This document shows, piece after piece, positions 1 to 55,868 of a stretch of 64,000 nt of DNA (the stretch's first letter is position 1; the number at the start of each line of letters is the position of its first letter). Position numbers and translations under genes: made by a program. Where the stretch lies: the NCBI GenBank assembly GCA_965226585.1, contig OZ245366.1, forward strand, positions 1,319,423 through 1,383,422. The letters are read 5' to 3'. Below the pieces are notes generated by a model. It was not told the origin of the DNA. It did not search any database and saw only the letters and a list, made by a program, of their open reading frames with translations. Origin of the DNA: Thermodesulfobacteriota bacterium (lineage in GTDB: Bacteria > Desulfobacterota_D > UBA1144 > Nemesobacterales > Mycalebacteriaceae).

Positions 1-3000
1 GGTTGATTCCCAACTCGTAGAAACATACTGAAACCTGCCGTCAACCATATATCTGTCCACTATTGTGGAGGCAAAAATGCCGCCCATAAATCTTGTTGCC
101 TCTCCGCTTGCGTCTGCCCTGCCTTCATCAGTCAGCACATCCATATCAAGGTTTGAGATTTCATAACCGCCTGCCACCGAAACAAGAATGCTGTTAAACG
201 GCGCGGATACGCCGCCGGTGAAGGTATAGACATCTTCGTCATAGTTAATCGCTGAAGAATAGCGGGTGTACCTTCCGCCCGATGTTGCCCACACGCAACC
301 AGTCCAGAAATCTCCGTCTATCTCATCACTTGCCGCAGAGCCGTAACCGCAACCGCTTGAAAGTTTTGTGGCAAAACTCCTGTCTGCGCGGTAAGCGGAC
401 TGGATGAGAGAATCATAGATATCCAAACTGGCATCTTTCAGCGACATTGCTGTCAAAAACAGGTTGCCGTCTCCATCTGTCTGAACACTTCCCCTTTCGC
501 CTATTTCCGCGTTTAGACGCTCTACAACCTCTTGCCTTTCTTCGCCGTCCGGCAAGTCGTCCGCTTCAAAAATTGTGTACTCCGTTATATGCGTTCCGGG
601 AACATCAACTCTGACTCTGAAACCTTCAATATCTTCCGCGCTTATCGTGCCTTCAAGGTTTATAAGCGGTTTGCCTGTCATCTCTTCAGGGTCTGCCGAG
701 ACAACAAGGGTTGAATTCGCGCCGAAGGTTATTTTGTCCAAGCCGTTAAAACCGCCCGCGCCGGCAAGAACTATTGTGCCTTCATTTATGAAATGGTCAT
801 CGCCTTCGCCAAAGTTAATGGTTGCCCGTTCCGGCTCCCGCTCAGGCGTGGCGGATGAAAGACGGAAACGGTTGCCGCCTCCTTCAGACGGGGTTGACTG
901 CGCCCCGTGCGCCGGAGCCGACTGCGAGGATGGCGGGGGTGATGATGATGGCGGAAGCCCCGTAACGGTGTCAGAACTATCGTGTATGACCGACCCCGCG
1001 CCGTTTATTGTGCCTCTGTTTTGGAAAATATCCGAGCCGGATCCCGTGTCAAAAGAGGTGATAATTGTGATAGTTCCCGTGTCTTCGTTATAGACTTCGT
1101 CATCGTCAGCGCCCATGCTGGCGTTTCCGATGAATGTGCCTTCGTTTGTGAAAATGTCATCGCCGTCTCCCGTGTCAAAAGAGCCGATAATTGTGAGAAG
1201 TCCCGTGTCTTTGTTGGTAAATGTGTCTCCGACATCGCTCAGAGTTACTTTTCCGACTATCGTTCCCCAGTTGTCAAGTCCAACGTCATTGTTGTCCCAC
1301 TCGTCTCCCACCTGCAAGGCGATTACGTTGTTCGCGGGGGTAACTATGCAGTTGCGGTTCTCATCTATCACACCGCCGCACAGAAGAGCGCCCTCAAAAA
1401 TCCGCAGCAAACTCTGATAACGGGCATACGAGCCGCTTCTCAAAGATACCGCCACAGAGTTCATCCCGGACGCAGACACATTCGCGCCGTTGTACATATG
1501 GAGTTCCGCCTCGCTTTCGCCAACATTCGGGTCATCATCTTTCTCTTCAATCAGGATGGTTGTGCTGTCCGCTCCGGTTGTGTACACATCTGCGGCGTTT
1601 ACGTTCACGACGCCAATCCTGTCATACGAATTAATATTTACCGCCACACTCCGCGCGCCGTTTGTGAATACACGCGCCCCGCTGTCAATCGAAATGGTTG
1701 ATCCGAATCCGTAGAACCCGTCCACCACCGCCATTGCGTGGCTGTCATTGGCTGTTGTGTACACTTGCGACCCGCCGGACACTCTTGTGTAGGTAACTCC
1801 CACCCTGCCTCCGATAAGTATCGCGTTGCTTTTCGCGCCGTTCGCGAACACTCTGGAATTGCCGTGAACCACAATATTTCCAAATGCCTCCGTTTCTATG
1901 AATATGCCGTTGCCCGTTTTTGTGGTGAACACGCTTGATGACTGGTTGACAATTACTTGCAGTTCATCGTTGAACCCGCCGTCAATACTGTTCGCATAGA
2001 TTGCGACGCTTCCCGCGCCGTTTGCCCACACATGAGACTGATTACCGACAGTTATGAACTGGCTCCTCAAAATAGCATTGCCATAGACTGAGCGCGCGCC
2101 GTCTCCTTCCGTCCACACTTGCGACTTGTCGTTAATCGTAATGTTGGAGTGCTGTGCCGCGCGGGAGTTCATGAATATCGCGCCCGTTCTCGCGCCGTTT
2201 GCCCACACTTTTGAGCCGTTTGTAACTGTCCACTCCGTACTCCGGCTCCGGTCGCCCCCGGAATGCGCTTGCGACACCGCCGTTGCTCTGCTTTGTCCTG
2301 TTGACCACATATTTGAGCCGTTGATTTCAATTCCCATAAACCGGTGGGATTCTGCCAACAGCGCGCTTCCGTCTTGTCCCGTTGCCCAAACATTTGAGCC
2401 GTTGGCAACCGAAACATAAGAATCGCTTGTTAAGGATGTTGTTGTTTTCGTTCTTATGCCGCTTCCGCCTCTGCCCGTAGTTCTGATGTTTGAACCGCTG
2501 ACGACAACATTGCCTCCTCCCGCTCCAAGCATATTCATAAAGACTGCCGAGGAACGTGCAGGCGTGGAAGTTCGTGTGGAGTTTTCAAAGATGTCTGAAT
2601 CGCTAATTTCCACATAAGCTCTGCCGGCCGTTGTCCGCGCCCTGATGGCGTTTGAGTCCCGTGTTGCGTCCGTCCATATCTTTGAGGAATTGACCTTCAC
2701 AACAATCGCGTTGTCTCCGGTTTCCGTGTTTGACGAGAAGGCGAAAATTGCCGAACTTGCGGTTTCATTTGCCCATATATTTGAGCCGTTGATGCTGACC
2801 GCAACACTGCCGCCTCCGGCATTGGCGACAACCGCATTTGACCTGCCTCCGCCCGCCCATATATCCGAGCCGTTTATCTCAATGTCTATATTCTCGCTGT
2901 CGCCCCCGCTGCTGATATGAGCGGCGTTCACGTCTTCGGCTACCGACGCTCTGCCCGCGCCTATTTGCGAGTTGTGAATGGCAACAAACATTGCCGCAGG

Positions 3001-9297: not shown

Positions 9298-12200
9298 TTA
9301 AAACGCTAATCCAACTCTCGCGCTAAACACCTGCGTTAGCGTATCCAGCCCCGGCGTTACTCCGCCGTCATAGTCAATCCGCACATTAAAACCCTTATAC
9401 GGCAACACAAACTCAGCCCCGGCGCCGTAATTAACCATTATCCTCTCAAGCGAACCGGTTACCTTGAACAAATCTCCGCCGCTTGTCCTCGCGCTCCACT
9501 GCGTTTCAGGGTCTGTAATGTGCGCGTCCGCTCCCAAACTCATCCAGATATTTACCGTCTCTCCCGCAGGAACATACGCCGTTACGGACGGGCTTATAAC
9601 CAAATATGTCTTCCCCGCCCCGCCAACGGTAAGGGCGGAATCTTCCAAAGCCGTCTCGCGGAAACCGTCAGCGGATACCTTTGTAACTCCCGCCTCAACT
9701 CTGGGGACAACCATAAACACACCGCCGGGAAATATCGGCATCTCCCCGCCCACAGCCGCAGACCATGTGGCTACATCCGTTTCCGCCCCGTGCTTCCCGT
9801 TATCGCCTCTTATCAGACTTTCCCCCCTTAACGCCGCAGATTCCCATGTCGCTCTGGCAAACTGCGTTCTCACATCCGTGATAATTCCGCTCCAAAACTC
9901 ACTCGCCACCGAAATACCCGCCATAAACCTCTCGCCGCCCGCGCTTGTGTCTGCTCCGGCGTCAAAGTCCGATGTCTCATATCCCGCCGCAACCGATACG
10001 ATGGATTTTCCGGCAGGCACGGTAAAACCGCCCGTGAATACGTGGGCATCTTCACTGTATTCGGAAGTGGCGGTGTGCCGCGTGAATCTGCCGTCCGCCG
10101 CCGCCCACAGACAGCCGCCCCGCAGGTCTTGCGTTTCCGTCTCATCGCCGCCGCCGTAGCAACCGCCGCGCAGTTTTTCTGAAAATGCGTTGTCCGCGTA
10201 GTAGGCGGATTGAATCATGGCGTCATAGTTTCTCAGGTAATCGTATGGACGGAGGTTGGAAAGGGTAATGAAGATGTTGCCGATTTCATCCATCCGGGCA
10301 GACGCATTCCGTTCAAGCCCATCGCTTACTATGTTGAAAATTGCCTGTCTTTCATCTTCGCTGTCCACCAGAATTTCTTCCCTGAATAACAGAAACTCTC
10401 CCGAAAGTCTCTCAGGGTTGGCAAATCTTGCGCTGAAACCTTCAATGTCCGCCTCAGCTATCTCGTCTTCAACGTTTATGAGCGATCTGCCCACCATCTC
10501 GACAGGGTCTGCGGTTATAAGAAGGAGTGAGTTTTCGCCGAAGGTTATTTTCTCCAAACCCGCAAAGCCCTCGCCTCCGATAACCATTGTGCCGTTGTTT
10601 ATGAAATAGTCATCGCCGCCGCCAAAGTTTATTGGTATCCCCGTGCCGTTTATTATGCCGTCATTTCTGAAAGTGTCTTCGCCGGTTCCCGTGTCAAAAG
10701 AGCCGGCCATTGTGATAACTCCCGTGTCTTTGTTGGTAATTCTGTCGTGGTAATCGCTCAGTTTCACATCTCCGACTATCGTTCCCGCGTTTTCCAGAAT
10801 GGAGTGGTAGTCTGCGGGGTCGTCATCCGCATTTCCGTCATCCCTTATCCGCACCGCCGCCGCGCCCGCCGCGCCGGTTATAAGACAGTTGCGTCCCGCG
10901 TCTATCACACCTGAGCACACAAGGCCGTCTTCAAAAACTTTCATAATGGTTTTGTAATATGCCGCTCTGCCGCTTCTCAAAAATACCGCCGTAGAGTTCT
11001 GTCCGTCTGCCGATACATTCGCGCCGCCGGATATGTAGAGTTCCATCTTGCCCCCGCCGGAACTCCTTGCTCTTTCCGCAAGCATTATGGCCGCGCTGTC
11101 CACTCCGGTTGCATAGACACCCGCGCCGCCTGATATGTTCGCAATGGCGTCTCTGTTATATGCGTTGATATTTATAGCCGCGCTTCTCGCGCCGTTAGAG
11201 AAAACACGCGAACCGCCGTCAACATAAACGTATGACCTCGCGCCGGCAAAACCGTCTGTTATTGCTATTGCGTTGCTGTCTGCTCCGGTTGTGTACACTT
11301 GCGACCTTCCGGACACTCTCATGTGGGAATCCCCGATTCCGAAGCCAATAAATATCGCGTTGCTTTTCGCGCCGTTTGTCCAAACTCTGGAACCGTCGTG
11401 AACCACTATGTTGGCGAATGCCTCCGTATCTACGGCTATGGCGTTGCTCATTTCGTCTGTGGTGAAAACCCTTGACGAGCCGTTGACAATCACCCGCGCG
11501 AAATCGTCAATTCCGCCGTCCGCGCTGTTTGCGTAGATTGCCGTGCTTCCCGCGCCGTTTGCCCACACACGGGAATGACTGTGGACTTCTATGTATTGAT
11601 TTCTTTCAGATGCGTTTCCGTAGATTGAGTATGCCGAGTCTCCCTCCGTCCACACTTCCGACCCGCCGGAAATGATAATGCCCGACCCCGGCGCTCTTTG
11701 AGAGTTCATGTATATCGCGCCCGTTCCCGCGCCGTTTGCCCAAACCTTTGAGCCGTTTGCAACCACCCACTCCGCTCGCGCCCCCGTCCAGCTTCCCGCG
11801 CTGTGATGCGAGTTTGACTCAGCCGCCGCTCTGCCTTCTCCAACAGACCACACATTTGAGCCGCTGATTGTAATTCCTATAAATCTGTGCGAGTTCACGA
11901 AAATCGCGCTTCCTTCCGTGCCGTTTGCCCACACATTTGAGCCGTTGGCAATCGTAAGAGTTGTGTCCTGTCTTATGGCTCCCGCGCTCTCCGCCCTTAT
12001 GGTTTTGCTGTTAATTCCTCCCGACCAGATGTTTGAACCGCTTGCGACAAAACCAATTCCTCCCTGTCCGGTTGAGTTCATCATCACCGCCGCAGAACGC
12101 GCCTGAAAAGAGAGTCTGGAATCTTCAAAGACGGTGGAGTCTCGTATTTCCACATAGATTTTGCCGGCGCCCGTTGTTTGCGCCCTGATGACGTTTGAGT

Positions 12201-13870: not shown

Positions 13871-13883
13871 ATTATTTAACCCG

Positions 13884-14174
13884 ATGGACAAAAATCCCGC
13901 AGTCTACATAATGGCGAGCAAGCGAAACGGAACACTTTACACAGGTGTAACCAGCAACCTGCCCGCCCGCGCTTGGGAGCATAAGAACAGCGCGACAGAA
14001 GGTTTTACAGACAAATACAGTGTCCACCTGCTTGTGTACTTTGAAGTGCACGAGGATATGAATTCAGCAATTGAACGCGAGAAGCAGATAAAGCAATGGA
14101 AACGCCAATGGAAATTGGAACTTATAGAGAAAGACAACCCTGAATGGAAAGATTTGTATGAGGATATTGTTTGA
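13884..14174 (+). CDS. GIY-YIG nuclease superfamily protein, 96 aa, of the UPF0213/YhbQ-like small stand-alone GIY-YIG type.
   Basis: The N-terminus reads AVYIMASKRNGTLYTGVTSNLPARAWEHK..., matching the GIY-(10-11)-YTG...R...EH pattern of the GIY-YIG catalytic domain. It is the only plus-strand gene in the island. It is inserted in the loop of a repeat-unit palindrome. Confidence 0.75.
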   Translation: MDKNPAVYIMASKRNGTLYTGVTSNLPARAWEHKNSATEGFTDKYSVHLLVYFEVHEDMNSAIEREKQIKQWKRQWKLELIEKDNPEWKDLYEDIV

Positions 14175-21334: not shown

Positions 21335-21360
21335 TGATAAAAACTCAGAACTACGGGGTA

Positions 21361-43400: not shown

Positions 43401-46400
43401 CAGAAGTTACACCGCTGTCAACAACCAGACGGGTTTCGCCCAGTTCAATGCCGAAGAGAACTGATAACGTAGTTGAGTTTTCAATTTTTAAGTTGAAGGT
43501 GCCGTTGGCTTCAAGGTCAAACAAGTCGGTTCCGTTAAACCGCGCGAGACCTGTGATAGCATCCTCTCCGAGTGTCTCGCCCGCGTGTTCCGTGAGAAGG
43601 GAGATTGCCGCCGAGTTTACTCCCATGGCTGTAACATTTGAGCCGTTGACGCTCACAAACGGGCTTCCGCCCAGTTCGGCATGAGCGAATATGCCTTTAG
43701 AGTCGGCTCCCAGGGCAATTATGTCTGTTCCGTTTGCTATTTCCGCGCTCGCGTTTCCGCCGTTGTATGTTGCCACCTCAACCGCCGTGCCTTCGCCGAG
43801 CGTTACAGTTACCGTGGAACTGTTGATGTGCAGGTTGGTAATGCCTCTGTCCGCCGCGCGCGCGTCCGTCAGGTTTGCCACCAGAGACGCATTTGTCGCC
43901 CTCTTTGTGGCGGAAGCGTAGATTGCCGTTGCTCCCGCGCTGTTTGAAAACACATTTGAGTCTCTCACCGTCATGTCGGCAACTCCGCCGCTTTCGCTGT
44001 TCACGCTGATTGCCGTGGGGGAAAAGTCATCCGCGTCTCCCGCCCATACATTTGAGTCGGTAACGTTGACAGTGGAAACACCGTTCCAGAAGGCGATTGT
44101 GCTGATGGCGATGGGGTTATATCCACTTGCCGCAGGAGTTGGCGTGTAGAACGCCGATACATTTGAAGACACCACATCCATTCCGATTGCTCCGTCAAGC
44201 GTATACGCAGAAATTGCCGCTGAGCCGTCTCCCGCGCTGTTAGTCCACACATTTGAACTGGCTATATCAATGTCAGCGGTTGTGCCCGCTTCGTAAAATG
44301 AAATTGTTGTCGCGCCGGGTCCGTTAGTCCAAACATCCGAGCCTCTCAAATTAAGGAGTATTTCCGTGCTGTCCGCATCCAGTTGGACAAGGGCGATTGC
44401 CTCGCTGTCTCCCAAAGTTGTTTCAGCCCACAATTCCGTGCCGTTGCTGATATCCGCCGATTGCGTTTCAACCGTTACGCTTCCCCCAAGGGATTGCGTC
44501 CATATTTTCGCGCCGTTGGCTTGCAGGAGTGGCGAGATAACCGCTCTGCCGCCCGCGCCGTTAGCCCACACCTGCGCATCCGCCTCAACGGTTACCAGTT
44601 GGTCGCTCACTATCGCGGCGCTTATTTCGCCTTCTGTTGTAAAAGTTAAAAGCCCGTCACTCGCAAAGTCTGCCACGGTGCCGGTTACGTCCGCTTCCGC
44701 CCACACTTGAGTGCCCGCGCCGTTGACGGTTACGACTGTTGTAGCCCTAACCGCGTTGCTTGCCGCTCCGTTTGCCCAAACTTTCGCGCCGTTCCAAATG
44801 CTGATAGCTGCAGACGCTATGGTGTCGGTTGTGTTGCCTTCCGTCCAGACCTGAGTGTCCGTGCCGTTGACTGTCGCGCTTGATCCCGCAGAAACCGCCC
44901 GGCTTTCCGCGCCGTTTGCCCAAACTTTCACGCCGTCATTGATATATGCCGCTGTTGCTTTTACTGTTCGCGCGCCGCCGAGTGTTGTCCAAATCTGTCC
45001 CGTTGCGTCATCCGCCACGATGCTGACCGTTCCGGAAGCTCCCGCAGAAACCGCCGAACTGGTGCTCGCCCCGCTTGCCCAAACCTTTCCTTCGTTTGAA
45101 ACATTCAAAGTTGCCGTAACTATTGCGTTGCTTGTCGCCCCGTTGCTCCAGACACTTGCGCCATTGACAGTTACAGAGGTTGTTGCCGAAGCCGCGTTGC
45201 TTGTCGCTCCGTTTGCCCAAACCTTCGCGCTGTTCCAGATAGTAACAGTCGGAGCCGTTATGGTGTCGGTTGTGTCGCCTTCCGTCCACACTTCAGTTTC
45301 CGCGCTGTTGACTGTTACGGTTGTTGCCGAAGCCGCCCGGCTTCCCGTGCCATTTGCCCAAACTTTCACGCCGTCATTAATATATGCCGTTGTCGCTTTT
45401 ACTGTTGAAACGCCGCCAACTGTTGTCCAAACTTCTCCGCCGCCATCCACTGATATGATGTTGACCGTTGTTCCGTCTTTCGCCGCAACCGCCGAACTGT
45501 CCACTCCGTTTGCCCAAACCCTTCCGCCGCCCGAAACATTTACCGTTGCGGCAACTATCGTGTTGGCGTCAGATCCCTGCGTTGTCCAAACCTCAGAGTT
45601 GTCAACCAAAACGGTTGTCCCTTCAACCGCGTTGCTTGTTGAGCCGTTTGCCCAAACCTTCGCCCTGTTCCAGATGTTCACAGTTGGAGCCTTGATGGTG
45701 TCGGTTGTGTCGCCTTCCGTCCACACTTCAGTGCGAAAGCTGTTGACTGTTGCTATTGTTGTAGCCGAAACCGCCTGACTTCCCGTGCCGTTTGCCCAAA
45801 CTTTCACACCGTCATTAATATATGCCGTTGTCGCTTTTACTGTTTGAACGCCGCCAACCGTTGTCCAAACCTTTCCCGTTGCGTCATCCGCCACTATGTT
45901 GACCGTTCCCGAAACTCCCGCAGAAACCGCAGAACTGCCCGTGCCTTCCGCCCAAACCTTTCCTTCATTTGAAACATTCAAAGTTGCCGTAACTACCGTG
46001 TTGCTTGTCGCCCCGTTGCTCCACACTTTCGCGTTATTGACTGTTACGGAGGTTGTTGCCGTAACTGTGTTGCTTGTTACGCCGTTTGCCCAAACATCTG
46101 CTTCGTTCCAAATGTTCACAGTTGGCGCAACGATGGTGTCGGTTGTGTTGCCTTCCGTCCAGACTTGGGTGTTTGTGCTATTGACTGTTGCTGTTGTTGT
46201 AGCCGAAACCGCCTGACTTCCCGCGCCGTTTGCCCACACTTTCACGCCGTCATTAATATATGCCGTTGCTCCTTTTACTGTCTGAACGCCGCCAACTGTT
46301 GTCCAAACCTGTCCGTCTCCATCTGTTGATACGATGTTGACCGTTCCCGTTCTCGCCGCAACCGCCGAACTTGTCGTGCCGTTAGCCCAGACCTTTCCGC

Positions 46401-49400
46401 CGCCGGAAACATTCACCGTGCCTGCGACTATCGCGTTGCTTGCGGTTGCCGTTGTCTCCGTCCAAACTTCAGAGTTGTTGACTGCCACGGTTGCCGAGAC
46501 AATCGCGTTGCTTGTTGCTCCGTTAGACCATATCTTGGATTCGTTGAAAATATCCGCATGACTGCCGGTTGCGTATATTGTGCTTGCGCCCGCGCCTTGC
46601 GACCACACCTGCGAGCCGTTGACGGTTATCCCGCCTCCGCCCTGAGTTATGCTAATGGCTCTGCCGCTCACACCGTTAGACCAAACTTTCGCTTCGTTTT
46701 CTATAGCCACACTCGCGCCTAATGTTGTTTGAATTGCGCTGCTAACCGCGCCGCTTCTGCTTCCTTCTTCCCACACTTCCGCATTGTTGACTTTTATGGA
46801 TGACCCGCTTCCGGTCGCGGCAAGGGTTTCGCTTCTTCCTCCGTTAGACCAAACTTTCGCTTCGTTTTCTACGAACATCTCGCGGTTGTCTCTTACAAAT
46901 ATTGTTTGCGAGTCATCACTTAGCGTCCACACTTTCGTGCTACTGCCGTTGACTCTTACACTTGCGCCGCCGCGCCCTTGAATTGCTTTACTGCCTGAGC
47001 CGTTAGTCCACACTGAGCCGCCATACACATTCACTATGCCGCGACTGCCCGTCGCAACGATTGCGTCACCGGCAGGTCCCTCCGCCCAAACCTCTGTGCC
47101 GCTGCCGTTGACTGTTACGGTTCTGGCGTTAATGGTTTCCGTTGTTCCGCCGCCGTTAGACCAGACTTTTGAACTGCCGTACACACCAACTGTTCCTGCG
47201 GCTGAAATAATTGTCTGAGAGCCGCCGCCAATCGTCCACACACTTGACGCGCCGTTGACCGTTACGGCTGTTGCCGCCGCAACTGCGTTGCTTCCCGCGC
47301 CGTTTGCCCACACGCTTACGCCGTCATTAATATATGCCGTTGTTCCTTTTACTGTTGAAACGCCGCCAACCATTGTCCAAATCTCTCCGTCTCCGTCTCT
47401 TGATATGATGTTGACCGTTGTGCCGTCTTTCGCCGCAACCGCCGAACTGTCCACTCCGTTTGCCCAAACCTTTCCGCCGCCCGAAACATTTACCGTCGCG
47501 GCAACTATCGTGTTGGCGTCAATTCCCTGCGTTGTCCAAACCTCAGAGTTGTCAACCAAAACGGTTGTCCCTTCAACGGCGTTGCTTGTTGAGCCGTTTG
47601 CCCAAACCTTCGCTCTGTTCCAAATGTTCACAGTTGGAGCCTGTATCGTGTCGCTGTCGCTGCCTTCCGTCCACACTTGCGCGCCGTTGACTGTTGCCGT
47701 TGCCGCCGTAACCGCCTGACTTGCTGAGCCGTTTGCCCACACTTTCAGGTCGTTGATTTCCGCCGTTGTTGTTGCTTTTACTGTCGGAACTCCTCTGAGC
47801 GTTGTCCAAATCTCTCCCGTTCCGTCTGCTGATACGATGGTAACCCCTCCGCCCGTTTCCGCAGAAACCGCCGAACTGTCTGTGCCGCTTGCCCATACCT
47901 TGCCCAGATTTGAAACGTTGACTGTTGTGCCAACTATCGCGTTGCTTGTGGCTCCGTTAGCCCAAACGTGGGTGTCTGTGCCGTTGACTATAACGGTTGC
48001 CGCCTTTACCGTGTTGCTTGTCGCTCCGTTTGACCACACTTTCGCGCCGTTCCAGATGTTTGCCGTGCCTGTTGCAACTATGGTGTTGCTTGTGTCGCCG
48101 TTTGCCCACACTTCCGCTGTGCCGTTGATTGTTACGGTTGCCGCCGTAACCGCCTGACTTGTTACGCCGTTAGACCACACTTTCAAGCCGTGAATGCCTG
48201 CCGTTGTTGTTGCCTTTACCGTTGAACTTCCCGAAGCGTTAGACCACACTTCTCCCTTCCCGTCTCTTGATACGACCGTAACCCCTCCGCCGGCTTTCGC
48301 TGAAATTGCCGAACTTCCGGAAGCGTTAGACCACACTTTCGCGTCATTTGAAGCGTTGACCGTGTCGGCAACTATAGAGTTGCTTGTGCCGCCCGTTGTC
48401 CACACTTCAGAGCCGTTGACCACAACAGTTGTTGCTGAAATGGCGTTGGCTGTCGCTCCGGTAGCCCGCACTTTTGAGGCGTTCCACACATTCGCGCCAG
48501 CTGCTGAGATTGTGGTGGCTCCCGTTTTGTTCGTCCACACATCCGCGCCGCTGACATCAACATCACCGGTCGCCAAAATCGCGAAATCCGAACCGTTGCC
48601 GCCAATATCTGCGTCCACAACATTCACCGTTGACGCATTAATTGCCGCAAATCCGCCTTCCGTCCAGACGGAAAGACCGTTATCTTGTCCCGCCACTACT
48701 GACAGGGTTCCCGTGCCCGTGGTTGACGCTTCAATGGCAATACTTCCGGCTCCATCCGCCCACAAAACTGAACCGCCGTTTCCGCCTATGTTTATGTCTC
48801 CGCCGCTTGTGGATTTTGCTATAATGCCGTTCCCGCCTGTGGGGATTGAGCCTTTTCCGCCTCTTCCATAGACGATTCCGTTTGCGAGAGCAAGGTTAAT
48901 ATCTCCGATAGCCGTGCTGGCTATGATGCCGTCTTTACCAACTATGCAGGCGGTGTCGTTCGCAAGTACCATGCTTATGGATCCCGTGCCTCCGGTGGTT
49001 GCCGCCAAGCCGTAAGAGTTTCCTACGGATGAGGCAACTATTGCCGCGCTGTTTGTAATTTCAACTGTTATGGCTCCGCCTGCGGATGTGAGTGTCGCGC
49101 CTCTTGTGTCTAAAAGTTCGTCCCGCCTTGTCGAGTCCCGCGTTGCCGCATTGATAACCATGTGGATGTACGATTTTTCGTCTGCAAGCGTAAAGTCAAT
49201 ATCTCCGCTTGTTGTGTTTGCTATCAGGCCGTTCGTGCCGCTTTGATCCGAAAAGATTAATCCCTTAGTGGAGATGTCCACGTCCACTTTTCCGACTGTG
49301 GATGTTGCTATAATGCCGTTTCCGCCGGTTCCCCCGATTTTAACTCTTGTGGTGTTGTGAATATCTACATTCACAACGCCCGTTCCGGCTGTGATGGTAG

Positions 49401-49764
49401 CAACGTTTCCATCGCTTCCGTTTTTGACGGTGAACGAGCCGTTATCGCCTCTGAAGGTAGCGTCAGTCGCGCCGCCGATAACTACTGCGTCTCCGTCTGT
49501 CCGGGTTGTTGTGGTTGTTGCATTGGAAGAGGTAAGGTTGGCAGACCCTGTGGCGGAGTTGACTGTAACAACGGGACCATCCGTAACCACGGAAGGCAAA
49601 CCGTCTGTGATGTTAAGCGTGGCGTCTCCTGTTGTGGAAGTACAATCAATTGCGGTTGCGGTATCCGGGTTCACATCGCCGCAAGTCCTTTGCGCATGGG
49701 AGTTTTGCGGCGCAAAAGCAAATAGAATTGCGAACAGAGAGATAATGGTTAATTTTCTGTGCAT
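40420..49764 (-). CDS. Giant autotransporter-like surface protein, paralog G, 3114 aa.
   Basis: Signal peptide MHRKLTIISLFAILFAFAPQNSHAQ. It has 435-bp super-repeats across ~44700-48200. The linker at 41680-42400 is nearly identical to D 22620-23340. The β-domain is distinct and ends ...VTGRLNVAF. Confidence 0.9.
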   Translation of the reverse strand: MHRKLTIISLFAILFAFAPQNSHAQRTCGDVNPDTATAIDCTSTTGDATLNITDGLPSVVTDGPVVTVNSATGSANLTSSNATTTTTRTDGDAVVIGGATDATFRGDNGSFTVKNGSDGNVATITAGTGVVNVDIHNTTRVKIGGTGGNGIIATSTVGKVDVDISTKGLIFSDQSGTNGLIANTTSGDIDFTLADEKSYIHMVINAATRDSTRRDELLDTRGATLTSAGGAITVEITNSAAIVASSVGNSYGLAATTGGTGSISMVLANDTACIVGKDGIIASTAIGDINLALANGIVYGRGGKGSIPTGGNGIIAKSTSGGDINIGGNGGSVLWADGAGSIAIEASTTGTGTLSVVAGQDNGLSVWTEGGFAAINASTVNVVDADIGGNGSDFAILATGDVDVSGADVWTNKTGATTISAAGANVWNASKVRATGATANAISATTVVVNGSEVWTTGGTSNSIVADTVNASNDAKVWSNASGSSAISAKAGGGVTVVSRDGKGEVWSNASGSSTVKATTTAGIHGLKVWSNGVTSQAVTAATVTINGTAEVWANGDTSNTIVATGTANIWNGAKVWSNGATSNTVKAATVIVNGTDTHVWANGATSNAIVGTTVNVSNLGKVWASGTDSSAVSAETGGGVTIVSADGTGEIWTTLRGVPTVKATTTAEINDLKVWANGSASQAVTAATATVNGAQVWTEGSDSDTIQAPTVNIWNRAKVWANGSTSNAVEGTTVLVDNSEVWTTQGIDANTIVAATVNVSGGGKVWANGVDSSAVAAKDGTTVNIISRDGDGEIWTMVGGVSTVKGTTAYINDGVSVWANGAGSNAVAAATAVTVNGASSVWTIGGGSQTIISAAGTVGVYGSSKVWSNGGGTTETINARTVTVNGSGTEVWAEGPAGDAIVATGSRGIVNVYGGSVWTNGSGSKAIQGRGGASVRVNGSSTKVWTLSDDSQTIFVRDNREMFVENEAKVWSNGGRSETLAATGSGSSIKVNNAEVWEEGSRSGAVSSAIQTTLGASVAIENEAKVWSNGVSGRAISITQGGGGITVNGSQVWSQGAGASTIYATGSHADIFNESKIWSNGATSNAIVSATVAVNNSEVWTETTATASNAIVAGTVNVSGGGKVWANGTTSSAVAARTGTVNIVSTDGDGQVWTTVGGVQTVKGATAYINDGVKVWANGAGSQAVSATTTATVNSTNTQVWTEGNTTDTIVAPTVNIWNEADVWANGVTSNTVTATTSVTVNNAKVWSNGATSNTVVTATLNVSNEGKVWAEGTGSSAVSAGVSGTVNIVADDATGKVWTTVGGVQTVKATTAYINDGVKVWANGTGSQAVSATTIATVNSFRTEVWTEGDTTDTIKAPTVNIWNRAKVWANGSTSNAVEGTTVLVDNSEVWTTQGSDANTIVAATVNVSGGGRVWANGVDSSAVAAKDGTTVNIISVDGGGEVWTTVGGVSTVKATTAYINDGVKVWANGTGSRAASATTVTVNSAETEVWTEGDTTDTITAPTVTIWNSAKVWANGATSNAASATTSVTVNGASVWSNGATSNAIVTATLNVSNEGKVWASGASTSSAVSAGASGTVSIVADDATGQIWTTLGGARTVKATAAYINDGVKVWANGAESRAVSAGSSATVNGTDTQVWTEGNTTDTIASAAISIWNGAKVWANGAASNAVRATTVVTVNGAGTQVWAEADVTGTVADFASDGLLTFTTEGEISAAIVSDQLVTVEADAQVWANGAGGRAVISPLLQANGAKIWTQSLGGSVTVETQSADISNGTELWAETTLGDSEAIALVQLDADSTEILLNLRGSDVWTNGPGATTISFYEAGTTADIDIASSNVWTNSAGDGSAAISAYTLDGAIGMDVVSSNVSAFYTPTPAASGYNPIAISTIAFWNGVSTVNVTDSNVWAGDADDFSPTAISVNSESGGVADMTVRDSNVFSNSAGATAIYASATKRATNASLVANLTDARAADRGITNLHINSSTVTVTLGEGTAVEVATYNGGNASAEIANGTDIIALGADSKGIFAHAELGGSPFVSVNGSNVTAMGVNSAAISLLTEHAGETLGEDAITGLARFNGTDLFDLEANGTFNLKIENSTTLSVLFGIELGETRLVVDSGVTSAEVVNGANVSARGLNSVAADVSTMDGGISTLSVREGAAIWTTGANSSAVKLSTVDGENTETQFSTAITRFDASQAWTNGANSTVFEADAGEGPIVINIDNGTEVWVEGDNSVVFDLTAGAGYGVELAVHNSVVGINSQDGEILKIAGSDDDITVTSTNSSFRSGDSVTGPLFSASVETSDATVKIRDFTISGKSNIGITEIDRVWTTGENAVAFDFAHSSADPAAVGTYFDPRQVWSEGVDSGAIRIETVSGEVSLETGAQIWSNGSDTATISVRRVAAASSSVPRSSSHDSSNRIQHFSGFPTVDVGAPTEVKFSAPDGETAQVWAEGLSSSAIHTWLSGLVLEDARVWSNSSGGNTVKIVAAALDQQLQVGNGAIVCGGVLSGTTCTETAAVNAVHFSIDSGSTAGIGITTHSDGNITGRIQLAGGADTFINEGDFTGSGDTGGGNDTITIKSGSTFTLTGNLDLGAGDGDTVTTETGSTLTVGSFMFENAETTPSAGGTGRFRLSSGAQSSPASGGGARFSLSAIDPASEDTHASIDFGEGGNDRFISNGTTVIEGADGFTGLESIKFGEGATLVVSASSGEMADKPLIDIEGTITAEDLPEDFNIRLGAGLNHGEYVIFASEDLPENPAEIYERLGADENGFVTLAANNELNLQVYDALIQSAYYSDRYFGSHLRKGCGGGASVDGEGVVSGGCVWALSGGRFTRHSPDFEFDETAYSFVGGVSMPFAGIATSLGFGYEASSFDVTEENSGGVADADFERFMFGLFASKTIFEKVQIDGRFEFAQGDWSSSRTDMKTIDVNTTPTDPNDDSRFDGRFGAKTDARTYGGAAGAEMSFDYGEFTVIPRIETGITYIETEQFVESFLGQGTDTTNTGEEDNKLTVNQFDDILIYATPSVSALYSSNDTLTLSATLGVDAHILNPESDIKATIGDDEPVNTTGTLERINIKVGAGAEITPTESVTFTLNYDGGASAGFDTVTHAVTGRLNVAF

Positions 49765-49807
49765 TAAGGGTTCCCTAGAGGGGTAACTGGGTTAACTAAT
49801 CTTGGAG

Positions 49808-49836
49808 AATGTATAGTTGAACGGGGGTTGTGTCAA
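49808..49836 (-). promoter_or_regulatory. Putative σ70-type promoter for paralog G: -35 TTGACA at 49831-49836, a 17-nt spacer, and -10 TACATT at 49808-49813, with a G8 homopolymer at 49846-49853 just upstream.
   Basis: This is a homolog of the D leader. The minus strand reads cTTGACAcaacccccgttcaactaTACATTctcc. D carries gggagaca where G has the G8 tract. Confidence 0.4.
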
Positions 49837-49879
49837 GAATTAAAAGGGGGGGGCAGGAAAAAATTTTCACTCCTGCGGA

Positions 49880-50450
49880 GGCAAGAATCCGGTAGTTAGC
49901 CCAGTTGAATACTGGATTCCGTGTCAGGCACGGAATGACGGAAAGAAAAAAAGGCGCGGAATGGCACACTTTCCCGTCATTCCTGCGAAAGCAGGAATCC
50001 AGTATTGGTTAGCCCAGTTGAATACTGGATTCCGTGTCAGGCACGGAATGACGGAAAGGAAAAAGGCACGGAATGACACACTTTCCCGTCATTCCTGCGA
50101 AAGCAGGAATCCAGTATTGGTTAGCCCAGTTGAATACTGGATTCCGTGTCAGGCACGGAATGACGGGAAGGAAAAAGGCACGGAATGGCACACTTCCCCG
50201 TCATTCCTGCGGAAGCAGGAATCCAGTATTGGTTAGCCCAGCTGAATACTGGATTCCGTGTCAGGCACGGAATGACGGAAAGGGGAAAAAGGCACGGAAT
50301 GACGGGAAGGAAAAAAGGCACGGAATGGCACACTTCCCCGTCATTCCTGCGGAAGCAGGAATCCAGTATTGGTTAGCCAGCTGAATACTGGATTCCGTGT
50401 CAGGCACGGAATGACGGAAAGGAAAAAAGGCGCGGAATGACGGGATGGGG
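49880..50450. repeat. Tandem array 4 of the ~113-bp palindromic repeat, ~5 units, between the H stop and the G promoter.
   Basis: The unit recurs at 49897, 50017, 50127, 50237 and 50378. Confidence 0.9.
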
Positions 50451-53400
50451 TCAAAAACTGTAATTAACCCCGCCTCTGAACTCTTGCACAAAAGTATCAA
50501 AACTCGCGCTCATTCCGCCATCGTAGTCAATCCTTACACTCAATTCACGCAAGGGAGCATAAGGCGTGTACTCAAAACCCGCGCCGTAGTTGAACATTAT
50601 CCTGTCCTGCCCGCCGCTTCGGGGAACATTACCGCCATCAAGGGTCGCCTCAAGTTCCGCCTCAGGGTTCAAGATGTGTATATCCGCCCCCACGCGAATT
50701 CTCATATTTACCGTCTCACTCAAAGGTGAACGCGCCTCAAATGAGGGGCTTACATATACCAGTATCTCACTTGTGTCTTTTACCTTGAAAGCATCAGCCC
50801 TTGCCTCAGGAGTGTTTGTTAAGGAAGTCTCATCAAACGCCCCCGCTGTTACATAAGACGCTCCAATCTCTATACGGGGAAACAACGCAAAACTCCCCGA
50901 TAAAAACGGCATTGCCGCGCCAAGCGCGCCGCCGAATACTGTCGCGTTTGTATCCGCAGTGTATCTATTATCTCCCGCAGTGCGGGTTGACTCCCAACTT
51001 GTGGAAACATACTGAAACCTGCCGTCAACCATATATCTGTCAACTATTGTGGAGGCAAAAATGCCTCCCATAAATCTCGTTGCTTCTCCGCTTGCGTCTG
51101 CCCTGCCTTCATCGGTCATCACATCCATATCAAGGTTTGATATCTCATAACCGCCTGCCACCGAAACAAGAATGCTGTTAAACGGGGCTGATACTCCGCC
51201 GGTGAAGGTATAGACATCTTCATCATAGTTAATCGCTGAAGAATAACGTGTGTACCTTCCTCCCGATGTTGCCCATACGCATCCAGTCCAGAAATCTCCG
51301 GCTATCTCATCACTTGCCGCAGAGCCGTAACCGCAACCGCTTGAAAGTTTTGTGGCAAAACTCCTGTCTGCGCGGTAAGCGGATTGTATGAGAGAATCAT
51401 AAATATCCAGACTGGCGTCTTTCAGCGACATTGCCGTCAAAAACAGGTTGCCGTCTCCGTCTGTCTCAACACTCACTCTTTCACCCGCCGCCGCGCTCAG
51501 ACGCTCTACAACTTCCTGCCTTTCTTCGCCTTCGGGCAGGTCGTCCGCTTCAAAAATTGTGTACTCGTTTATATGCGTTCCGGGAACATCAACCCTGACT
51601 CTAAAACCTTCAATATCTTCCGCAGTTATCTCGCCTTCAATATCTATGAGCGGTTTGTCATTCATTTCTTCAGGGTCTGCCGAGACAACAAGGGTTGAAT
51701 TCGCGCCGAAAGTTATTTTGTCCAAGCCGTTAAAACCGCCCGCGCCGGCAAGAACTATTGTGCCTTCATTTATGAAATGGTCATCGCCTTCGCCAAAGTT
51801 AATGGTTGCCCGTTCCGGCTCCCGTTCAGGCGTGGAAGAAAGACGGAAACGGCTGTCGCCGCTTGCTGACCCCTCCCCCGTCATTCCTGCCTCCCCCGTC
51901 ATTCCTGCGGAAGCAGGAATCCAGTATTGATTAGCCAGTTGAATACTGGATTCCGTGTCAGGCACGGAATGACGGGAGGGCGCGGACGAATGACGGGAAG
52001 GGGAGGATGCGGAATGACGGGAGGGCGATGATTGCGCGCCTGAACTTGCCGGCGTAGGAGTAGTCGGTGTAGGCGTTATCGTGTGCGTGTCATCGCCTGC
52101 TACTGTGCCGCCGTCCAAATTCACAAAAGTGTCATCACCGGCTCCCATGTCAAAATCTCCGGTGAGGGTGAAGGTTCCCCTGTTGTTCACTACGTCATCA
52201 CCGGCTCCCATGCTGCCGCTTCCGGTGAATGAGCCGTTGTTTTCAAAAGTCTCCGCACGCCCGGAAGTCTGCAGAATTCCCGTTATGCTTCCCGCGTCCA
52301 AAGCAGTTCCCCCGGCGGTGGTTTCAGCCGCATGAGTTACAATCTTTATCACCCCTCCCGTACTGTCCGCCGCAATATCGCCCGCCGCAATTGTTACCGC
52401 GTTTCCGGCGGTCGCGTTCACAACCGAACCCGCGCTCACATCAACCGTTACAGCTCCGGTGGTGGTGGAAACAGAAATTGTATCGGCATCAGCCGCTACC
52501 GTGTGCGCGGCGGAAAACGGACGCATATAGACTTGCGCGTGTCCACTTGCGGTTGTCGCGATAATCGCCCTTCCACCCGCGCCGCCCGCTCTGACTGCGG
52601 CGCCGTCTCTTACATAGATAATGGATTGTCCCCCTCCGGTAACTCGCGCGTTAAGCCCGATTCCGCCCATGCCGTCTGCGGTTATCTCCCGCTTAATTCC
52701 CCCCGCATCATCCGCGCTTCCGTTACTCCATGCCGCGTTGATAATCGCGTGAGCATCCCGCGAGACGGCATCAACAACCGTGCTTCCCACGCCGTTTGCG
52801 AATATGCTGTTTCCCGGACCCCCAAGCCAAATCTCTGAATTTTGCCTTAGTGAAACTGTTTCTATCACCTTACTGCCATCGCCGTTTGCGAATATCGCGC
52901 CGTTTGCGTGAACAATCGTCTTCTGAGCGTCCGTGTTTGCAAAGACTGTTTTACTGCGGTCGCCGTCAGACCACACTTCCGCGCCTGACTCAACGACAAA
53001 TGTCGTCGGTCTTCTGTTTCCCGACTGCATTCTTACAGTTGCGCTGTCCACGCCGTTTGTCCAGATTTTTGAGGTTCCCTCGGCACTGGCGCGCGCAGAG
53101 GCGTCTTTGGCGTGAACACGCAGACCTATGCTTGAATCCCCATGCGCGAACACCTGCGCGGAGCCTATAACCCGAACATTCATATCTCCGTGCCTTTGGT
53201 TGATGTCGTGTCTGGCAAGGGGTCCCGGGTCGGAGGAAGCGAAAATGGCGTTACTGTTCCCCTCCGTTACTCCAACGCTTGCCGTGTCAGAGATTGTTAT
53301 TATTGACGGGGCTTGGAGACCTATTGCCCTGATTGCCGTGCTTCCCGCGCCGTTTGCGCGCACTGTTGCCCTGCCGCGTATGTTGGCAATAACTCCATCC

Positions 53401-55868
53401 ATGACATGTGGACTCACGGCTAACCCGCCCGCGTTAATGGCGTAACTGCCGTCTCCCACCGAAAAAATTTCTGCGTCATCCTTGATGTCCAGAACCGTTT
53501 TTGTTGAACTCGCACCGCGTGTCGGGCTACTCGGGTTAAATCCCGCATTCGCTCTAATTGCGGTTGATGAATCGCCGTATGAATACACTTTTGAGTGTCC
53601 GTTGATTATGATGGAAGGGGGTTTTTCAGCACCTTCCACCGATATCGCCGCGCTCCGGACGCCGCTGGAGTGGATTTGCGGGGAATCCCCACCTCTGCCG
53701 ATATACATTCTAAGTGTTCCCTGAGTACCGCTTATAAAGTTGACCGCCGCGCTTCTGTCCCCTACTGAGAAAACTTCCACGCTGTCATAAATTCTCAACT
53801 CCGCGGTTCCTGCCTGAGAGTTAATCCTAACCCCGCTTCCGTCCGCGCCGTTTGCCCACACTTTCGCGCTATCCATTAAGGTTATGAGTTGAAAGGTGGT
53901 GCCGCCTGAATCCATAAGCAGTCCTGTTCCCCCGCCGTTGGTGAAAACCCGGGAAGAGTCGAAAATACGAGCATTTACCCACTTTGTTGATGTTCCGGCT
54001 CCGCGAACGCGCGCGGCATATCCACTGCCGAGTGTATAGACTTGCGAACTTCCTTGTATATCAAGGCGCGCCCTTGCTTTGCTGTAAATATCCAAGCCGT
54101 CTGTTCCCGCTCCGTCCGCCGTTACTTTTGCGGAGCCCTTCACATTGAACCAGATTTCCCCGTCGGTTGACCTTGTGTTGTCCACTAAAGCCGCAATTCC
54201 GCCGTCTCCGTTAGCGGAAAGCACCGATGAGCCGTCCAAGCTGACAACAATTTTGCCCTGTGACGGATTGATAAGAAGTCCGCGACCTCCGCTCCGTCCG
54301 CTTACTTCCGCGCTGCCGCTCATTTCAAATGTTTTTGTCCCGCCTGTGTCTTGACTCAAATCAACCGCGATTCCGCCGCCGTTTGCCGTTACCCGCGAGT
54401 CGCCTGAAACCACAACACGCCCCAATCCCCTGACTGCCGTGCCGGTCGCGCCTTGTGTCCACACCCGCGCCTTGCCTGAAATATCCACCCTTCCGGTTGT
54501 TGTTATCGCGTTGCTGTCTGCGCCGTTAGCCCATATTTTCGCGCCGCCTGAAACGGCTACTGTTCCAGTCGCCCTTACGGTTGAAGCCTCATCTGCGGCT
54601 GTCCAAATCCCTCCCGTTTCGTCAAGTGTGATTGTTAAGGTTCCCGCAGTTTTGGCATTGATGGCGACACCGCCCCTGCCGTTGGCATAGATTACTGAAC
54701 CGGTGTCTCCGGTGATGTTTATGTCGCCGTTTATTGATGTTGCATCAACACCTATCCCGGCTTGGTCAGCTATGGAAGTACTAATTCCGTAGGCTTCCGT
54801 ATAGGCTGAATTCAGTTGACCTCTTCCCCTTCCCTCAATTAGCCCACTTGAGAGTGTAATATCAATATCTCCGTCAACCGTGTTTGCTATAACTCCGTTT
54901 CTGCCGACTATGGTGGATACACCGTTCAACAAATTTATCTCTATGCTTCCGGCACCTCCGGTAACCGCCGCCAAACCGTAGGAGTCTCCCACGGATGAAG
55001 CCACGATTTCCGCCTGATCCGTCAGGTTGACCGTTATGTCGCCGCTTGCGCTTGTGGCTGTCGCGGCTTTGGTGTCAGACGCCAAATCCCGCATTCCGCC
55101 CACATAAGAATAGATTCCCGAATAGATGCCCAAAAACGAAAGTTCAATGTCTCCGGCTTGCGTCTCCATCTCAATGCCTTTTGTCTCGCCCGCCACTCTA
55201 AAGTCGTAGTCATAAATCTCAACCTTCTCTACTTCAATCACTGTGCCGGTCAAAATATTATAAGGAACTTGCACGCCGTCTCTGATTGTAGAATGCTCAT
55301 ATATGGGTATAGGCAGTATGTCAGCCGCATCCGGCAGTGGGTACACCTCAATTCTGCTTTTTCCGCTGAACTCCGCCACCGCTTTCCCGCTCTGGCTTGA
55401 TATGTAAATGCCGTTGCCGGTGCCAACTCCGTCAATGTTAATAACTGAACCGTTGTGAATCCCCACCACCGCGTCTCCGGTGCCGGCTTTTACAACGGCA
55501 ACGGTGCCTCTTCTTCCGTCTTTGTCTGCGCGCGCCGCGCCGTCAAGTATAAAGGTCGCGCCCCGCGCACCGCCAACATCTATGGTGGAACCGCCGGTTG
55601 CGGTTGTTTTTATAACCGAGCCGGTTGCGGAAAAAGCGGCGTCCGCTCCCGCCGCTGTGGTGTTGACCGTAACGGCGGTTGCGTCTGTAACTTTAGTTGG
55701 TGAACCGTCTGTGATTGTTAATGTGGCATCTCCCGATGATTTGGTACAGGAAAGAGCGCCGCCCGCGGGCGTTACCGCGCCGCAGTCTGCCTGAGCATAC
55801 GATTGATGGTGTGGTGTAAAAGCGAATAAAAGGGCGAGCAGAGAAAAGACTGTTAGTTGTTTGCGCAT
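50451..55868 (-). CDS. Large autotransporter-like protein, paralog H, 1805 aa, with a divergent passenger, an E-type β-domain and an in-frame repeat insertion.
   Basis: Signal peptide MRKQLTVFSLLALLFAFTPHHQSYAQ. The passenger largely lacks the VWANG periodicity. Bases 50451-~51850 are ≈ E 30701-~32100. The repeat element lies at 51870-52030. The protein ends VNYSF. Confidence 0.85.
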   Translation of the reverse strand: MRKQLTVFSLLALLFAFTPHHQSYAQADCGAVTPAGGALSCTKSSGDATLTITDGSPTKVTDATAVTVNTTAAGADAAFSATGSVIKTTATGGSTIDVGGARGATFILDGAARADKDGRRGTVAVVKAGTGDAVVGIHNGSVINIDGVGTGNGIYISSQSGKAVAEFSGKSRIEVYPLPDAADILPIPIYEHSTIRDGVQVPYNILTGTVIEVEKVEIYDYDFRVAGETKGIEMETQAGDIELSFLGIYSGIYSYVGGMRDLASDTKAATATSASGDITVNLTDQAEIVASSVGDSYGLAAVTGGAGSIEINLLNGVSTIVGRNGVIANTVDGDIDITLSSGLIEGRGRGQLNSAYTEAYGISTSIADQAGIGVDATSINGDINITGDTGSVIYANGRGGVAINAKTAGTLTITLDETGGIWTAADEASTVRATGTVAVSGGAKIWANGADSNAITTTGRVDISGKARVWTQGATGTAVRGLGRVVVSGDSRVTANGGGIAVDLSQDTGGTKTFEMSGSAEVSGRSGGRGLLINPSQGKIVVSLDGSSVLSANGDGGIAALVDNTRSTDGEIWFNVKGSAKVTADGAGTDGLDIYSKARARLDIQGSSQVYTLGSGYAARVRGAGTSTKWVNARIFDSSRVFTNGGGTGLLMDSGGTTFQLITLMDSAKVWANGADGSGVRINSQAGTAELRIYDSVEVFSVGDRSAAVNFISGTQGTLRMYIGRGGDSPQIHSSGVRSAAISVEGAEKPPSIIINGHSKVYSYGDSSTAIRANAGFNPSSPTRGASSTKTVLDIKDDAEIFSVGDGSYAINAGGLAVSPHVMDGVIANIRGRATVRANGAGSTAIRAIGLQAPSIITISDTASVGVTEGNSNAIFASSDPGPLARHDINQRHGDMNVRVIGSAQVFAHGDSSIGLRVHAKDASARASAEGTSKIWTNGVDSATVRMQSGNRRPTTFVVESGAEVWSDGDRSKTVFANTDAQKTIVHANGAIFANGDGSKVIETVSLRQNSEIWLGGPGNSIFANGVGSTVVDAVSRDAHAIINAAWSNGSADDAGGIKREITADGMGGIGLNARVTGGGQSIIYVRDGAAVRAGGAGGRAIIATTASGHAQVYMRPFSAAHTVAADADTISVSTTTGAVTVDVSAGSVVNATAGNAVTIAAGDIAADSTGGVIKIVTHAAETTAGGTALDAGSITGILQTSGRAETFENNGSFTGSGSMGAGDDVVNNRGTFTLTGDFDMGAGDDTFVNLDGGTVAGDDTHTITPTPTTPTPASSGAQSSPSRHSASSPSRHSSAPSRHSVPDTESSIQLANQYWIPASAGMTGEAGMTGEGSASGDSRFRLSSTPEREPERATINFGEGDDHFINEGTIVLAGAGGFNGLDKITFGANSTLVVSADPEEMNDKPLIDIEGEITAEDIEGFRVRVDVPGTHINEYTIFEADDLPEGEERQEVVERLSAAAGERVSVETDGDGNLFLTAMSLKDASLDIYDSLIQSAYRADRSFATKLSSGCGYGSAASDEIAGDFWTGCVWATSGGRYTRYSSAINYDEDVYTFTGGVSAPFNSILVSVAGGYEISNLDMDVMTDEGRADASGEATRFMGGIFASTIVDRYMVDGRFQYVSTSWESTRTAGDNRYTADTNATVFGGALGAAMPFLSGSFALFPRIEIGASYVTAGAFDETSLTNTPEARADAFKVKDTSEILVYVSPSFEARSPLSETVNMRIRVGADIHILNPEAELEATLDGGNVPRSGGQDRIMFNYGAGFEYTPYAPLRELSVRIDYDGGMSASFDTFVQEFRGGVNYSF
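51870..52030. mobile_element. Intergenic-type palindromic repeat element inserted in frame inside paralog H.
   Basis: The coding sequence contains cccgtcattcctgcggaagcaggaatccagtattgattagccagttgaatactggattccgtgtcaggcacggaatgacggg, encoding ...PSRHSVPDTESSIQLANQYWIPASAGMTGE.... Confidence 0.8.

Follow-up and report, generated by a model that had tools for sequence, protein, structure and literature searches.

The DNA analysed here (hereafter the window, 64,000 nt) is taken from contig OZ245366.1 of assembly GCA_965226585.1 (positions 1,319,423-1,383,422 of the forward strand), the genome of an uncultured Thermodesulfobacteriota bacterium, a relative of the sulfate reducers, with a genome of ~1.48 Mb (contig 1,484,247 bp). 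Positions 1-55868 of the window hold an island of eight large paralogous genes, designated A to H, which encode autotransporters of the classical type Va. We consider it probable that this island is a tandem cluster that was enlarged by duplication and then remodelled by recombination between its members. The mosaicism of the genes is real and statistically robust: recombination has stitched the paralogs together from shared modules. In one of them, paralog D, the passage from G-like to C-like sequence can be placed within 7 nt, at the point where the exported part of the protein meets its membrane anchor, and module combinations of the family differ between the source genome and a conspecific one.

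In the history that we propose, the cluster would have grown as segments reaching across gene boundaries were duplicated in tandem or gained by unequal crossing-over, and homologous recombination and gene conversion between paralogs would have remodelled it afterwards. Crossovers would concentrate at the conserved passenger/barrel junction and within an N-terminal module common to several paralogs. The outcome would be a set of full-length, separately expressible genes differing in N-terminal module, repeat core and barrel type. All would follow one plan, namely a Sec signal peptide, a long right-handed β-solenoid passenger, a variable linker and, at the C-terminus, an α-helix that leads into a 12-stranded barrel. 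The barrel would sit in the outer membrane and serve to export the passenger. The role of the family is most likely that of a repertoire of variable surface adhesins or shields, one that would diversify on the timescale of populations and strains and not by a programmed switch.

Architecture of the eight paralogs

The initial annotation of this DNA, made from the letters alone, had described eight giant paralogs in the island. All eight are confirmed as intact open reading frames (ORFs) of 1274-3219 aa on the minus strand, and all-against-all BLASTP joins A-H in one family. G, A, S, T and N are abundant in the proteins, all of which have Phe as the last residue. Seven complete barrels align with a mean column identity of 58% and fall into four types: E/H (the type of A as well), C/D, B/F, and G alone. 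The E/H type closes paralogs A (1-9126), E (30701-34600, 1299 aa) and H (50451-55868, 1805 aa); the barrels of E and H are 98% identical in aa sequence, and E as a whole resembles the C-terminal third of A. The C/D type is found in C (14921-21334, 2137 aa) and D (21361-29568, 2735 aa), and the B/F type in B (9298-13122, 1274 aa) and F (34663-40407, 1914 aa). G (40420-49764, 3114 aa) has a barrel type of its own. Paralog A, which consists of a class-I N-terminal module, a long predicted β-solenoid passenger and its barrel, runs out of the window, its last 177 aa lying beyond the window start. Its full-length database copy (P0014, 3219 aa) includes the part seen in the window and has an intact barrel ending in ...GGVNYSF. 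As had been proposed, A, D, F and G share the class-I N-terminal module (86-95% nt identity) and carry four barrel types among them (E-type, C-type, B-type and the unique type of G), an assignment borne out by the barrel alignment.

That these genes encode autotransporters had also been suggested from the letters, and it is upheld by a Pfam match of the B barrel and by structural matches of the G barrel. The isolated barrel of B (C-terminal 315 aa) matches PF03797 (Autotransporter) with E=2.7e-13 and 50.7 bits (cut-off 26), over positions 1-255 of the 255 in the profile. Three barrel types were scanned alone (B, C and G, that is, all except E/H), and two of the three miss PF03797 by sequence: the isolated C-type barrel matches PF13505 (OMP_b-brl) with 34.8 bits, and the G-type barrel has no Pfam match in isolation. 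Scans of the full-length proteins A-H against Pfam and NCBIfam returned no match, probably as a result of composition filtering. This null result is misleading, because the isolated B barrel does match PF03797. A sequence search of B against the PDB gave nothing useful. Annotation pipelines label these genes 'hypothetical' or 'beta strand repeat-containing' and will tend to miss the family.

An AlphaFold (AF2) model of the G-type barrel (pLDDT 76, pTM 0.74) shows a long helix (residues 2-37) directly before ~12 strands. With Foldseek, this model matched EstA (E=2.4e-16) and the NalP translocator (TMt 0.87), and also AaaA, EspP, AIDA-I, Hbp and BrkA; the E-values for EstA, AaaA, NalP, EspP and AIDA-I range from 1e-16 to 1e-12. 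The predicted linker helix bears a motif, YDAxIQSAYxxDxxF, that is kept in all paralogs in the barrel alignment. At the other end of the proteins, inspection by eye showed an N-terminus like a Sec signal peptide in 8/8: a basic n-region leads into a hydrophobic core, and an A/S-x-A-like site comes next (e.g., MRKTLTLLSILGILFAFSPPPSYA, followed by Q). In E it is read from the second Met at 34564 (MPKKSIAIILL...), which, judged by the signal peptide that begins there, is probably the true start. Thus, the proposal that all eight genes keep intact signal peptides and barrels holds, except that the barrel of A lies outside the window and is seen to be intact in P0014.

The passengers were approached through an AF2 model of B residues 75-1274. 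Over ~880 residues, the passenger was modelled as a regular solenoid with three strands per coil (pLDDT 75-95). The highest Foldseek probabilities were those of AaaA, pertactin (prob 0.97, TMt 0.54) and Vag8 (0.93), with no E-value <=0.001; the AaaA match (~200 columns) probably lies in the barrel region of the model. Each passenger coil comprises 23-24 aa, contains Trp and has the form ...VWAxGxxSxAV.... In D, a 435-bp (145-aa) internal tandem repeat made of such coils spans 24212-28203 (minus strand) in 9.1 copies, and its counterpart in G has 3.9 copies at 44745-46442. These passengers belong to no described family, and the protein family is new. In the source genome it has at least 16 members, ~31,600 aa in total, or roughly 95 kb (6% of the 1.48-Mb contig). 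For a streamlined lineage this is a very large investment, which suggests that the cells interact closely at their surface with a host, a partner cell, a predator or phage.

Recombination between paralogs and the age of the shared blocks

Paralog D is a chimera: it is G-like from its class-I N-terminus to nt 22627 and C-like, including the barrel, from nt 22620 to the stop codon. When D was aligned with both G and C, its identity to G was 98-100% as far down as nt 22620, and at lower positions its identity to C was 93-97%. The breakpoint (22620-22627, minus strand) falls within the conserved ...FGE..TLVV... junction motif, where the sequences share CTTGTT. Informative sites are 789 G-like to 40 C-like upstream of the junction and 28 G-like to 508 C-like downstream (Fisher p=2e-283). 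The sharp transitions from near-identity to divergence that had been pointed out initially are therefore genuine, that of D taking place over <=7 nt. Over the barrel as a whole, D departs from C at 3-7% of positions, and its divergence from G is 0-10%; being identical to neither, it is a distinct locus, not a splice of G and C sequences. It provides a clean natural example of an autotransporter anchor module exchanged between paralogs, with the breakpoint resolved to a few nt.

A second line of evidence comes from the N-terminal module of A, D, F and G. At its 243 informative sites we counted 67 adjacent incompatibilities vs 152±7 in permutations (p<1e-4), the three possible splits falling in long runs. 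When each gene was painted in windows by its nearest paralog, the nearest paralog was found to switch every few hundred nt, along every gene. Selective constraint alone was considered as the source of block likeness and was rejected on the basis of synonymous sites and split incompatibility.

The shared blocks were then delimited by self-BLASTN. C and D match at 14917-16218 vs 21357-22667 (91.3%), D and G at 22555-24152 vs 41602-43202 (92.8%), E and H at 30140-32506 vs 49867-52251 (87.9%, reaching into the downstream repeat array), and A and E in two blocks, 1-879 vs 31235-32113 (91%) and 2303-3292 vs 33501-34493 (84%). The 3.3-kb block that had been claimed for A and E has 72% identity overall in a global alignment, with two large indels, and only its last ~480 nt reach 95-96%. 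The block pairs listed in the initial annotation are thus present at about the positions given there, and that of D and G is longer than described, but their identity is 72-93% and they are not near-identical. The idea of multi-kb near-identical blocks fails on two further counts, since no two genes match exactly over more than 126 nt and synonymous divergence (dS, Nei-Gojobori) is substantial: 0.24 for C/D, 0.32 for E/H and 0.27-0.31 for A vs E or H, with dN/dS of about 0.1-0.2 in these comparisons. At block edges, dS leaps from 0.13-0.17 to >1 across one 60-codon window, and outside the blocks it is saturated.

Part of the block pattern is better read as tandem segmental duplication. A segment at 27064-32506, which takes in the 5' end of D, a repeat array and the 3' end of E, matches 47254-52251, which takes in the 5' end of G, an array and the 3' end of H. 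Two gene boundaries are crossed, and this would point to unequal crossing-over in the growth of the cluster.

The youngest shared tract adjoins the breakpoint in D. Positions 22621-22962 of D (minus strand) correspond to 41668-42009 of G; these ~340 nt are almost identical and include exact runs of 126, 123 and 77 nt. The whole D/G block has a dS of 0.056, comparable to the split between the source genome and a conspecific metagenome-assembled genome (MAG), GCA_051010995.1, in which housekeeping genes show a dS of 0.06-0.09. By these values, the D/G tract is the only clearly young exchange in the island. The old age of the other blocks, together with the 126-nt maximum of exact runs, argues that recombination is infrequent and not a rapid switch. 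As to the mosaic of gene-conversion tracts proposed initially, its recombination component is retained, as seen in the D chimera and the clustering of splits, and its fresh multi-kb tracts are not, most blocks being older than the strain split.

Barrels and passengers evolve in different ways. Within the blocks, the barrels have a dN/dS of 0.07-0.2, which indicates purifying selection. The class-I N-termini have a dS of 0.15-0.22 and a dN/dS of 0.6-0.95, and dN/dS is 1.3 in the D/G block. Between the two strains, dN is 0.07 for H and its ortholog and 0.006-0.015 for aspS, fmt and a hydantoinase gene, that is, about tenfold higher for H. These rates suggest that the passengers evolve fast under relaxed or diversifying selection.

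Strain comparison, expression layout and alternative explanations

Relatives of the family are few. HMMER with B against 1.84 billion representatives gave only 25 proteins at E<=1e-3, and a cluster look-up traced the homologues to four sources: the source genome, MAG GCA_051010995.1, one ENA contig and one Logan contig. A barrel profile scan of GTDB species genomes and JGI metagenomes found no relatives. A word-index protein search returned four proteins with the barrel profile and none with the D N-terminal module; because known members are in that database, these nulls are false negatives on proteins of this composition, and they were not used as evidence of absence. The island ends, beyond H as its first gene, at the conserved housekeeping genes fmt and aspS (55938-58640, minus strand; TIGR00460, NF001750). 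Both of the nearest species, which are represented by Thermodesulfobacteriota MAGs (one has a chromosome of 1.40 Mb) and show 76-77% identity in AspS, keep the aspS-fmt synteny, and in both of them ordinary genes follow fmt. The island is therefore lineage-specific.

MAG GCA_051010995.1 is conspecific with the source genome, its aspS, fmt and hydantoinase genes being 97-98% identical at the nt level. It keeps the order glmS...aspS-fmt-H, with the H ortholog (P0009) in the same position; the contig ends within it. Elsewhere, modules are combined differently. P0005 of this MAG and P0006 of the source genome are 90-97% identical in aa sequence over ~1250 aa, after which P0005 has a different (P0015-type) barrel. 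A second gene of the MAG, P0018, has the barrel type of P0005 and differs from it at scattered sites across the junction, which indicates that the two are real copies rather than a mis-join. In another assembly, P0003 has an N-terminus like that of F (94%), a core like that of P0004 (99%) and a barrel of the A/E/H type (95-100%). Module combinations thus differ between very close strains, which suggests that shuffling continued at the strain level, with the reservation that the assemblies used for comparison are fragmented. The initial annotation had named identical gene content among related genomes as an outcome that would speak against ongoing variation; the content of the relative is not identical, as P0005 and P0006 illustrate. 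Two conspecific assemblies already differ in their module combinations, which makes it possible to test directly how fast and by what means the modules are shuffled.

The most serious competing account is that the mosaic is ancient and frozen, the product of old duplication and a few exchanges that have since ceased, with blocks persisting through conservation of the barrel. It draws on the dS of the C/D, E/H and A/E/H barrel blocks (0.24-0.32), which is 3-5x the housekeeping divergence between the two strains, on the short maximum of exact matches, and on the fmt/H boundary and H ortholog kept between strains. We nevertheless judge it unlikely. The D/G block, with its almost identical ~340 nt by the breakpoint, is as young as the strain split. 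The barrels of E, H and A are closer to each other within the genome (dS 0.27-0.32) than to the E-type barrel of the other strain (0.41-0.48), as expected from some concerted evolution. Finally, in two strains that are ~97.5% identical, passengers that are orthologs of each other are joined to barrels of different types.

The layout of the genes bears on whether variation could be programmed. A candidate sigma-70-like promoter, TTGACA-17-TATCTT (10/12 matches), lies upstream of D at 29615-29643 (minus strand), and a homologous promoter-like site, also with 10/12 matches, lies upstream of G at 49808-49836; the same promoter-like sequence precedes a class-I gene in GCA_051010995.1. C starts 26 nt after D, and F 12 nt after G, short gaps from which co-transcription of D with C and of G with F is probable. 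A G8 homopolymer (C8 in the orientation of the gene) is located at 49846-49853, shortly before the -35 box of the promoter-like site of G. Upstream of D the corresponding tract is interrupted, and in GCA_051010995.1 it is C6; an effect of the tract on expression is doubtful because it lies outside the spacer. Phase-variable homopolymers were considered separately and rejected, only three tracts of 7-8 nt being present, none of them in a 5' coding region.

Silent-cassette systems such as msp2, vlsE, pilE/pilS and tprK consist of one expressed full-length gene and truncated, promoterless donors. Programmed antigenic variation of this kind, with unidirectional conversion of a single expression site, could find its donors in two barrel-only ORFs of the related strain, P0010 (L081 10001-11317, E-type) and P0011 (L084 10001-10976, C-type), which have neither signal peptide nor passenger. 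Both start exactly at the junction motif (MSK[MF]VI[KE]EAGRFDGLDK; ATGTCTAAA), and they could be deletion derivatives or donor cassettes. However, each stands behind one copy of the 113-bp element described below and a conserved promoter-like leader of its own, TTGACC-17-TAGACT. In the window, every one of the eight genes is complete, from start codon and signal peptide through to a barrel, and the barrels evolve under purifying selection (dN/dS ~0.1); D and G are preceded by the promoter-like sites, and no truncated or promoterless copy of the family was found in 56 kb. The initial view that these are full-length genes and not silent cassettes is therefore sustained by the intact frames, signal peptides and barrels and by purifying selection on the latter. 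Exchange tracts that are old and rare (dS 0.06-0.3) also speak against high-frequency conversion, and we regard a programmed system as very improbable. It is extremely improbable that the mosaic was made by an assembler that joined reads from different paralogs or strains. In favour of such an artefact are the origin of the sequence from a MAG, the 80-140-nt repeats common to several loci, and the related short-read MAG, in which breaks within these genes are plain to see. Against it, the window is part of a contig of 1.48 Mb, reading frames stay open for 1274-3219 codons, D is identical to neither C nor G, and independent assemblies carry the same family with the same junction motif.

Several points weigh against our preferred reading, a duplicated autotransporter cluster remodelled by recombination between paralogs. 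Most blocks are old, with the dS values cited above and no identical run beyond 126 nt. The Foldseek E-values of the passenger are weak, and the barrel is poorly modelled in the full-length B model. The comparison MAG is a fragmented short-read assembly whose contigs break inside these genes, and some chimeras there could therefore be assembly errors. The high dN/dS of the passengers may reflect relaxed constraint, not positive selection. Function, current activity, surface exposure and the order of events are what we infer from the genes.

The hairpin element and relation to known systems

The gaps between B and C, D and E, and G and H are filled with tandem arrays (4-9 copies) of a 113-bp multi-hairpin element. 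In the B/C gap, one array occupies the first half (13251-13873; TRF period 113, 5 copies, 97% matches) and another the second half (14187-14912), ending just after the C stop codon. The D/E array (29675-30700, 8.6 copies) lies between the E stop codon and the D promoter, and the G/H array (49867-50450) between the H stop codon and the G promoter. As RNA, the 29675-30700 array folds with z=-11.5, and the 113-bp units carry terminator-like sites, a hairpin with a T-run, in the orientation of the genes. Rfam had no match anywhere in the window, and a JGI metagenome scan for the exact pattern of the element's second hairpin did not find it. Between the two array halves of the B/C gap, on the strand opposite the autotransporters, is a stand-alone GIY-YIG nuclease gene (13884-14174, plus strand, 96 aa; PF01541 E=7.8e-16); nuclease and repeat may make up a selfish pair. 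Literature searches gave nothing specific on the organism or on associations between GIY-YIG genes and repeats.

The element also occurs in frame within coding sequence, in the linker between passenger and barrel. Copies are present in E (32148-32230, plus strand; translated ...SRHSVPDTESSIQLANQYWIPASAGMTG...) and H (51895-51977), and a partial one in F (36061-36102). In E and H, 83 bp were detected as element, and ~150 nt are involved in the alignment. Translated copies can also be recognised in P0005, P0006 and P0009, and peptides of similar appearance in P0003 and P0004 may represent further ones. In GCA_051010995.1, it lies upstream of family genes (L081 9845-9869, L082 9632-9656 and L084 about 9850-9930). 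In the stretch 34564-34600, the longest ORF of E begins within a partial hairpin element. One might imagine that the element and the embedded GIY-YIG gene form a selfish pair, that breaks at its copies drive the exchange of barrels and passengers, and that the barrel-only ORFs are by-products or donors. A surface-protein family would then have its cassettes shuffled under the guidance of a repeat. We think this scenario quite improbable; the breakpoint site in D has no copy of the 113-bp element.

Known type Va autotransporters (pertactin, Vag8, EspP, NalP, AIDA-I, EstA) resemble the window family in signal peptide, predicted helical linker and 12-stranded barrel, and probably in a β-helical passenger. 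The PF03797 match and the barrel structural matches (1e-16 to 1e-12) agree with this, and for the passenger pertactin and Vag8 rank among the best matches. Unlike these proteins, the window family has passengers that match nothing in Pfam or NCBIfam, reaches sizes of 3.2-3.8 kaa, and is found here in an uncultured Thermodesulfobacteriota bacterium, not in a proteobacterial pathogen. Both the protein family and the lineage that hosts it are new, and the kind of system, surface proteins varied by recombination of modules, is a known one.

The chlamydial Pmp proteins are autotransporter adhesins, of which a reduced genome encodes 9-21 paralogs (PMC2997323). They resemble the window family in forming a large, clustered paralogous family that takes up a sizeable share of the genome, in having passengers built from short motifs and in their presumed role in adhesion or variation. 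In contrast to Pmp proteins, the window proteins contain GGA[ILV] only 0-2 times and FxxN 1-6 times each, have no Chlam_PMP match in Pfam, are built of 23-24-aa Trp coils, and have barrel types that are swapped between paralogs. In Rickettsia, palindromic elements are inserted in frame in coding sequence. Rickettsia and Orientia also have the Sca proteins, autotransporter paralogs in a reduced genome (PMC6168176). The likeness to the present case therefore has two sides, several autotransporter paralogs in a reduced genome and a hairpin element tolerated in frame in coding sequence. Unlike the Rickettsia elements, the 113-bp element also forms intergenic tandem arrays, and its in-frame copies are confined to one place, the linker that joins passenger and barrel. 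The two cases are not related in sequence.

Gene conversion takes place between the adhesin genes babA and babB of Helicobacter. Bartonella has recombining outer-membrane adhesin families, Vomp/BadA and CFA (PMC8859334, PMC9231624). In both genera, intragenomic recombination of tandem or dispersed paralogs yields chimeric surface adhesins with hypervariable passengers and conserved anchors, a pattern shared by the window proteins as putative adhesins. BadA and Vomp are trimeric (type Vc), and the Bab proteins are not autotransporters. Two further differences are that in the window the membrane anchor module itself is exchanged and that exchanges look rarer, most blocks having a dS of 0.24-0.32.

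Opposite the passenger repeats of the island, antisense shadow ORFs of up to 307 aa (e.g., 44855-45778, plus strand) recur between paralogs only because the sense sequence is common to them. The similarity of the shadow-ORF peptides that had been noted initially is likewise real only as an antisense readout, these peptides being the reverse translation of the shared N-terminal module. The shadow ORFs were rejected as genes.

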